Sequence record: OK272472.1
Reading direction: 5' to 3' (one strand)
DNA: 64,000 nt
Source: Escherichia phage JLBYU28
In this document: in pieces, positions 51,378 through 51,466 of the stretch
Numbering within the stretch: the first letter of the stretch is position 1
How the letters are laid out: each line of letters starts with the position of its first letter
Notes under the pieces: generated by a model
What the model was told of the DNA's origin: nothing
What the model saw: only the letters and a program-made list of their open reading frames with translations
The model's database searches: none
Position numbers and translations under genes: made by a program

Positions 51378-51466
51378 AAAGAGGTCTGAAGTTGTGCCGC
51401 TAACTCAACTCCGTGGAATTTGTTACGGTCTTCAGTTGACACCAGCGGTCTTTCACTTGACCTCTG
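51378..51466 (-). ncRNA. Structured ~90-nt element without a canonical T-loop (candidate small RNA or decayed tRNA)
   Basis: Terminal 7-bp pairing AGAGGTC/GACCTCT encloses internal stems (CCGCT/AGCGG, CTGAAG/CTTCAG) and GGTCT-type motifs. Confidence 0.3.

Follow-up and report, generated by a model that had tools for sequence, protein, structure and literature searches.

Sequence analysis of the phage tRNA cluster confirmed that the gap between tRNA-Thr and tRNA-Val holds a conserved, folded, non-tRNA RNA element. This element fills the 95 nt at 51375-51469 of the window (the whole stretch of 64,000 nt that was analysed), is on the same (minus) strand as the tRNAs, and reads AUUCAGAGGUCAAGUGAAAGACCGCUGGUGUCAACUGAAGACCGUAACAAAUUCCACGGAGUUGAGUUAGCGGCACAACUUCAGACCUCUUUCAC in the tRNA sense; position n of the element is window coordinate 51470-n (Table 1). 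ARAGORN called 22 tRNA genes in the window, every one on the minus strand, and none in this spacer, in agreement with an earlier note which had proposed, from the letters of the sequence, a tRNA-sized structured element without a T-loop occupying a tRNA slot. Elsewhere in the cluster, ARAGORN leaves spacers of just 1-7 nt within the tRNA runs. The spacer had no match in Rfam at gathering thresholds, and a permissive scan of 51200-51650 (E<=10, 4227 families) gave no match to the tRNA model (RF00005) on it, while the four neighbouring tRNAs scored 44-60 bits in that scan. The sole row touching the spacer was a chance-level one, snoR101 (51448-51471, E 1.1, 15.8 bits for a gathering score of 40), so that the element reaches no family of Rfam 15, neither at the gathering score nor credibly at E<=10.

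Compared with tRNA (RF00005), the element is alike in size, location and orientation, and a 7-bp acceptor-type stem (AGAGGUC/GACCUCU) links its 5' and 3' ends. This pairing of the ends had been claimed beforehand and is borne out, as AGAGGTC occupies 51380-51386 and GACCTCT, which is exactly its reverse complement, 51459-51465. The element differs from tRNA in the absence of a model match: no cloverleaf (T-arm with T-loop, D and anticodon arms) was found at model score. Its 3' end also lacks an encoded CCA, UUUCAC following the stem, whereas the neighbouring tRNAs encode CCA.

Table 1. Window coordinates of the element, of its predicted helices and of the features on either side.
Feature	Position	Strand	Remarks
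Near-consensus sigma-70-type promoter	52835-52863	-	TTGACA-17-TATAGT, 11/12; upstream of this part of the cluster
tRNA-Thr(tgt)	51470-51546	-	Upstream of the element; ARAGORN; encoded CCA, then AUUC, then P1
Whole element	51375-51469	-	tRNA-Thr/tRNA-Val spacer; R1 match at 51375-51470 (-), 122.8 bits, the sole one in the window
P1, 5' strand	51459-51465	-	AGAGGUC; positions 5-11; pairs with 51380-51386
P2, 5' strand	51444-51448	-	CCGCU; positions 22-26; pairs with 51397-51401
Invariant 27-nt block	51414-51440	-	GUCAACUGAAGACCGUAACAAAUUCCA; positions 30-56; same in Felix-like and Avunavirus copies
Apical hairpin	51405-51439	-	P3 UCAACU/AGUUGA, GAAGA bulge, P4 CCGU/ACGG, 10-nt loop AACAAAUUCC; minimum-energy fold
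Alternative helix, 5' strand	51406-51412	-	GGAGUUG; positions 58-64; common with the P3/P4 3' strands
P2, 3' strand	51397-51401	-	AGCGG; positions 69-73; within the loop of the alternative helix
Alternative helix, 3' strand	51388-51394	-	CAACUUC; positions 76-82; near-repeat of CAACUGA in the invariant block
P1, 3' strand	51380-51386	-	GACCUCU; positions 84-90
tRNA-Val(tac)	51300-51374	-	Downstream of the element; ARAGORN

The element is conserved like the flanking tRNAs. Its diversity, taken as the mean per column over 28 distinct versions of a 451-nt region, was 0.043, to be compared with 0.239 for the true spacers and with 0.145, 0.066, 0.021 and 0.006 for tRNA-Thr, tRNA-Val, tRNA-Leu and tRNA-Gly, respectively. 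A lack of conservation, put forward earlier as a reason to abandon the RNA, was thus not what these Felix-like versions displayed. Columns that vary are found mainly in the two tails, which are single-stranded, and at positions 27 and 29 of an internal loop. By contrast, the 27-nt block was changed in two singleton variants only, L037 and L047, and between Felix-like and Avunavirus copies the basal third of the element has strongly diverged while the block is unchanged.

Regarding distribution, the window region matches Felixounavirus genomes at >=99% identity, and the 95 nt are 100% identical to positions 27805-27899 of Felix O1 (AF320576). The element was found by BLAST in 263 phage records, with a coverage of >=80% in 259 of them, its carriers being Felixounavirus, Mooglevirus phages of Citrobacter, phiSUSP1 and Avunavirus phages. 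In Mordin, it is 96.5% identical, for 88.7% over the whole 451-nt region. Identity falls to 81-83% in Av-05 and TH18 (Vequintavirinae) and in Avunavirus 18-1-2, and Av-05 has retained the apical block with diverged basal parts. A covariance model made from the Felix-like copies (R1) found exactly one copy per genome region searched. It found no element in Wc4, in T4 or at ten other DUF7338 loci, and no homologue was detected in E. coli genomes, plasmids or GTDB genomes. Scans of IMG/VR (with a 21-mer, and with no constraint on the P4 stem) returned Felix-like and Av-05 contigs only, plus 8 chance matches, and a metagenome scan gave 19 loci with the element, all of them Felix-like or Avunavirus. 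One record, MG065664.1, bears the name 'Campylobacter phage A132'; its copy of the element is 98.9% identical, and the record looks like a misnamed Felix-like sequence or contamination.

The gene order in Avunavirus phages is tRNA-Gly(tcc), element and small ORF, and in Av-05 no tRNA lies downstream of the element. This Avunavirus copy is flanked by homologues of tRNA-Gly and of the DUF7338 gene, and the DUF7338 protein encoded downstream is 79% identical to the product of window ORF 50644-51201, which indicates that a block 'tRNA-Gly - element - DUF7338' is shared between both subfamilies. The Avunavirus copy is thus not independent, and all copies of the element descend from one locus. In the window, DUF7338 (phrog_2143) is a predicted protein of 185 aa whose gene lies on the minus strand inside the tRNA cluster; it travelled with the element into Avunavirus, and the homologues known from large phages, T4-like and others, likewise lie within about 1-2 kb of tRNA genes (L057, L059, L063, L065, L066). 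In Pectobacterium phage Wc4, also a member of the Ounavirinae, tRNA-Thr and tRNA-Val are 9 nt apart and the element is absent, hence the element is an insert that is dispensable for processing. Presence/absence variation also occurs about 85 nt from the element, where a 137-aa HNH endonuclease gene, absent from the window, lies between tRNA-Gly and tRNA-Thr in Felix O1 and some relatives (709-1122 in L004, which is Felix O1; 839-1252 in L002, which is PHB11; 832-1245 in L003).

From a structural point of view, the tRNA-sense strand is predicted to form a rod with an energy of -30.7 kcal/mol (z = -2.96), as good a fold being reached by 1 of 200 shuffles. The plus strand folds nearly equally (z = -2.74), so that energy alone is no guide to the strand. 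Further stems in the interior had been announced by the earlier note, as had the motif ACGGTCTTCAG, which is present as described at 51425-51435; P2 and the apical hairpin are part of the predicted fold, but the simple rod turned out to be incomplete, because P3/P4 competes with a better-supported alternative helix (see below). Homologues were compared in an alignment of 26 distinct sequences (A6) which was fitted to the rod, a plain MAFFT alignment having placed the 5' stem of Av-05 out of register and hidden a compensatory change; the covariance-model alignment fixed the register. In A6, 97.4% of the cells of the four rod helices are paired, compared with 31-46% once the partners are shifted by 1-3 columns, and the covariation score of the rod was matched by none of 500 shuffles. 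Double changes occur at two rod pairs, one in P1 and one in P2. In P1, a G-C pair becomes U-A in the Av-05/Avunavirus group and G-U in L093, and L092 has lost 2 nt from each strand, which leaves a stem two pairs shorter. In P2, which is G+C-rich, G-C passes to G-U (L107) and to A-U (L089). P1 and P2 thus appear to be kept by compensatory change, a signal which is real but modest, with few events, close relatives and a rod-fitted alignment. In the apical P3/P4, A6 holds wobble changes only, plus four substitutions that break the hairpin, and the comparative support for P3/P4 is weak. Every wobble variant reads as G-U in the tRNA sense and would be an A.C mismatch on the opposite strand; such pairs being legal on the tRNA-sense strand only, the structure is to be placed in the RNA made together with the tRNAs. 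Two further pairings were rejected: P1b, a lower extension of P1 (AAGU/ACUU), is not conserved in the Av-05 group and is incompatible with the alternative helix, and an 8-bp alternative pairing, GUGAAAGA/UCUUUCAC, is lost in relatives owing to the variable 3' tail.

Folding of the divergent homologues indeed revealed that GGAGUUG (58-64) may pair with the downstream CAACUUC (76-82), and not with the upstream CAACU. This alternative 7-bp helix is paired in 182 of 182 cells, that is, in all 26 distinct sequences of A6, and four of its seven pairs vary, including one double change from A-U to G-C, in the Avunavirus group. Its other variants are G.U to A-U in wV8, G.U to G-C in L022, L047 and L092 (as read from the sequences), and U-A to U-G in the CACAGC variants, and each wobble change in P3/P4 also suits or improves it. 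Judged by comparison among homologues, the alternative helix is better supported than the apical hairpin. In energy, the isolated hairpins of the Felix type are nearly equal (-7.2 versus -6.1 kcal/mol), and in every variant lineage the alternative helix is the stronger one. Nested-fold ensembles are made up of 99% rod for the Felix type, whereas the alternative helix accounts for 73% in L092 and 63% in Av-05; these differing dominant folds could be due to drift rather than to a switch. When GGAGUUG pairs upstream, the apical P3/P4 forms and the invariant block is buried; when it pairs downstream with CAACUUC, the block is freed. Since the alternative helix crosses P2, the two would correspond either to two alternative states or to a strained pseudoknot, in which the third loop has just 2 nt to span a 5-bp stem.

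The invariant bulge/loop block, the covarying stems and the competitor strand taken together seem to fit a trans-acting RNA better than a passive spacer. We lean towards the view that the element is a small RNA cut from the tRNA precursor, the invariant block of which acts on a partner. The promoter listed in Table 1 has the same hexamers and spacing, TTGACA(17)TATAGT, as promoter P45 of Felix O1 (PMC3185647). Scanning of the minus strand from this promoter to the element detected no terminator-like site, and the tRNAs of the cluster have encoded CCA ends followed by A/U-rich bases; a search of the literature found no RNA-seq study of a Felix O1-type phage. From a mechanistic point of view, the element would be transcribed within the phage tRNA operon as a non-coding RNA. 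Its 3' end would be set by the RNase P cut at the 5' end of tRNA-Val, by analogy with established tRNA processing in E. coli, and its 5' end by an RNase E-type cut in the A/U-rich CCA-AUUC trailer of tRNA-Thr. The 7-bp P1 may then shield the resulting species of about 90 nt from exonucleases. The invariant 27-nt block, with its GAAGA bulge and AACAAAUUCC loop, would be the working part and would bind a partner in trans, which may be a protein or a short RNA seed; the competitor strand inside the element would make the opening of the hairpin nearly free (the above -7.2 versus -6.1 kcal/mol). A more specific and rather doubtful extension is a new class of phage riboregulator which borrows tRNA maturation for its own biogenesis, with a fold poised between two states, CAACUUC capturing GGAGUUG once the invariant block, as effector strand, engages a conserved host factor or a component of anti-phage defence. 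A target of this kind would explain why the element and the DUF7338 gene moved together between Ounavirinae and Vequintavirinae.

A partner for the block was sought in the window, in E. coli genomes, in plasmids, in the rRNA operon and in guaA, and none turned up. In the 64-kb window, the 27-nt block matched its own antisense strand only; the best other duplex with the window reached -21.9, for -20.5 to -28.1 with shuffled blocks, and 14-mers were found in the window in chance numbers. Searches of 5,426 E. coli genomes and, separately, of plasmids with the invariant block gave chance-level matches only. A striking feature of the plus strand opposite the block (51414-51440) is that it reads GICYGLQL, a guaA-type amidotransferase motif. 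The 19-mer GAAGACCGTAACAAATTCC had 11 exact matches among 185,579 bacterial genomes, all in MAGs and all antisense to a GICYGLQ (guaA-type) coding sequence, and no guaA-type gene was found in the window. An antisense action on glutamine amidotransferase was rejected, the duplex with E. coli guaA mRNA reaching -25.8 for a shuffle mean of -27.4, and we judge the GICYGLQ match to be a coincidence of codons. Mimicry of the 16S rRNA decoding-site strand, GAAGUCGUAACAAGG, was also rejected, the local alignment with the rrnB operon scoring 18, below the shuffle mean of 21.4.

The element would belong to a known kind, that of small RNAs embedded in phage tRNA operons. Within this kind, species 1 (rnaC) and species 2 (rnaD) of T4 come closest to it in where they lie and in how they are presumed to be made. 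Both carry the annotation of small stable RNAs in the tRNA cluster of a virulent phage; like the element, they are non-tRNA, roughly tRNA-sized or larger, and in the same orientation as the tRNAs around them. Likeness in sequence or structure was not found: with filters off, the T4 tRNA region scored at most 12.7 bits with R1, the folds of rnaC and rnaD differ from that of the element, and rnaC has a canonical T-arm, CCGGGUUCGAAUCCCGG, where the element has none. Moreover, rnaC and rnaD lie at the end of their cluster, and the element between two tRNAs. To our knowledge, the function of T4 species 1 and 2 is still unknown. If the element proves to be a stable RNA, it would be the second clear case, after these, of non-tRNA RNAs in phage tRNA operons and, unlike the T4 case, it offers a compact testable design, with an invariant single-strand block and two competing helices.

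Two other systems are relevant to its biogenesis. The C4 antisense RNA of phages P1 and P7 is reportedly a hairpin RNA freed from a longer transcript by RNase P, which works via exposed loops and is said to have its targets in the ant operon; C4 exemplifies the ability of the tRNA-processing machinery to mature phage regulatory RNAs. The permissive Rfam scan of 51200-51650 gave no match of that kind on the element, and C4 has targets where none was found here. In E. coli, 3'ETS-leuZ is reported to be a functional small RNA derived from a tRNA spacer and cut from the tRNA precursor as a by-product of maturation, and RNAs of this type reportedly bind Hfq and sponge known small RNAs. These are host RNAs, whereas the element is phage-encoded, far more structured and devoid of a U-rich 3' tail.

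Other explanations of the element were weighed against a small RNA with a partner. It would be unlikely, in our opinion, for it to be a cis-acting processing or folding spacer which insulates tRNA-Thr from tRNA-Val, or offers an entry site to RNase E or RNase III, and has no function after excision. Its place within a polycistronic tRNA transcript and the other stem-closed spacers of the cluster (51877-51975, z = -5.9; 53114-53263, z = -6.3) agree with such a role, but neighbouring tRNAs are processed with spacers of 1-7 nt, Wc4 has just 9 nt between Thr and Val, the Av-05 element is without a downstream tRNA, and mere insulation would not call for 27 invariant nt spread over a bulge and a loop. 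The idea of a decayed tRNA gene, or of a mimic of tRNA topology, has still less to commend it: neither the tRNA model, even at E<=10, nor ARAGORN recognizes the element, it has no T-loop or D-stem and its stem is followed by UUUCAC in place of CCA, and a decaying pseudogene would not match live tRNAs in conservation. In the mimic, two helices of 7 bp each, P1 and the alternative helix, would stack as an acceptor-plus-T-arm-like minihelix, in which a 46-nt insert replaces the D and anticodon arms and P2 serves as the D-loop/T-loop contact; the tRNA-sized slot, the 7-bp terminal stem, the tRNA-like order of the strands, and the true T-arm of the similarly located T4 species 1 RNA all speak for a decayed or mimicked tRNA.

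It is very improbable that the element acts as DNA, be it as a site for protein binding, as the target of a homing endonuclease or as a signal for recombination, or that it is a small plus-strand ORF. The compensatory changes, and wobble pairs that are legal on one strand only, argue against DNA, even though both strands fold about equally and Felix O1, like some of the relatives, has an HNH endonuclease gene at a distance of about 85 nt. As for coding, ORF107 is annotated over the element in Felix O1 and GICYGLQL is read on the plus strand; yet the corresponding 69-aa ORF is spurious, since it crosses tRNA-Thr in antisense and reaches into tRNA-Gly; in its frame, the substitutions of Av-05 are non-synonymous (as read from the alignment), and the GICYGLQ match is accounted for by a codon string common to bacterial guaA-type genes. 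Equally remote is a transcription terminator or attenuator inside the tRNA operon. It could be suggested by the stable hairpin, which contains G+C, and by two helices that exclude each other as those of attenuators do, but an intrinsic (Rho-independent) terminator has a G+C-rich hairpin directly followed by a U-run, and neither helix has one (UUUCAC here, UUUAAA or UCCAAA in relatives); in addition, the element is absent from the list of the terminator scan and tRNA genes resume immediately downstream. The flanks of the element bear 3-nt direct repeats, TTC in the Felix type and CTA in Av-05, which makes it a candidate miniature transposable element; the single copy per genome and the T-rich flanks run counter to this.

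None of the phage records inspected has a non-coding-RNA annotation on the element. An 'unknown' ORF107 spans it in the Felix O1 record, a 'hypothetical protein' stands at its place in the records of wV8, JH2 and UAB_Phi87, and the words stem-loop, hairpin and small RNA do not occur in the paper on the Felix O1 genome (PMC3185647). At the least, annotation as a non-coding RNA is warranted, to end spurious ORF calls over the element. Felix O1 is a classical phage for the typing of Salmonella, and phages related to it are widely isolated as candidates for therapy.

The resemblance to a hairpin-repeat family of the window, also suggested by the earlier note, did not hold. This family, CAGAAGACCRWWTWCAGCAA ... 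YGGUCUGG at 53393-53869 (-), has about 11 nt, AC[A/U]GAAGACCGU, in common with the element. Its members combine a 20-nt 5' box and a YGGUCUGG 3' box with an A/U-rich interior, whereas the element has no YGGUCUGG 3' box and its interior is G+C-rich and paired; moreover, R1 found no second copy or paralogue of the element in the window at E<=10. The family itself occupies the upstream half of the tRNA cluster, at 53622-53705, 53783-53872 and 53402-53490 (-), and also at 53368-53401. Its 5' box, CAGAAGACC(G/A)(U/A)UUACAGCAA, pairs with (C/U)GGUCUGG about 55 nt downstream and closes A/U-rich inter-tRNA spacers of 84-90 nt. The folds are weak (z of -1.0 to -3.0), and the boxes are kept in the relatives L023 and L092.

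Other features of the cluster deserve mention. A very stable hairpin lies at 51877-51975 (-), with a stem of about 26 bp and -40 kcal/mol, and a stem built on perfect 22-nt inverted-repeat arms, with three small hairpins inside, lies at 53114-53263 (-), with -51.6 kcal/mol. As modelled, both resemble substrates of the RNase III type or additional small RNAs. Three segments resemble tRNA and are called neither by ARAGORN nor by Rfam: 52459-52535 (-), which is annotated as tRNA-Arg in phage SeKF_63; about 52236-52320 (-), with an acceptor-like stem and a long insert; and 53322-53346, an isolated T-arm-like segment that is 88% identical to the T-arm of tRNA-Ile. Elsewhere in the window, group I intron models match above the gathering score at 17991-18274 (+) with 64.2 bits and at 1266-1616 (-) with 53.9 bits; Felix O1 is described as free of introns in its genome paper of 2010. 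In Av-05 (L005), the 150-nt gap between tRNA-Tyr and tRNA-Gly (1271-1419) contains a stem-closed hairpin, CTGTACTGGC...GCCAGTACAG, together with a tRNA-like sequence, uncalled by ARAGORN, which ends in CCA.
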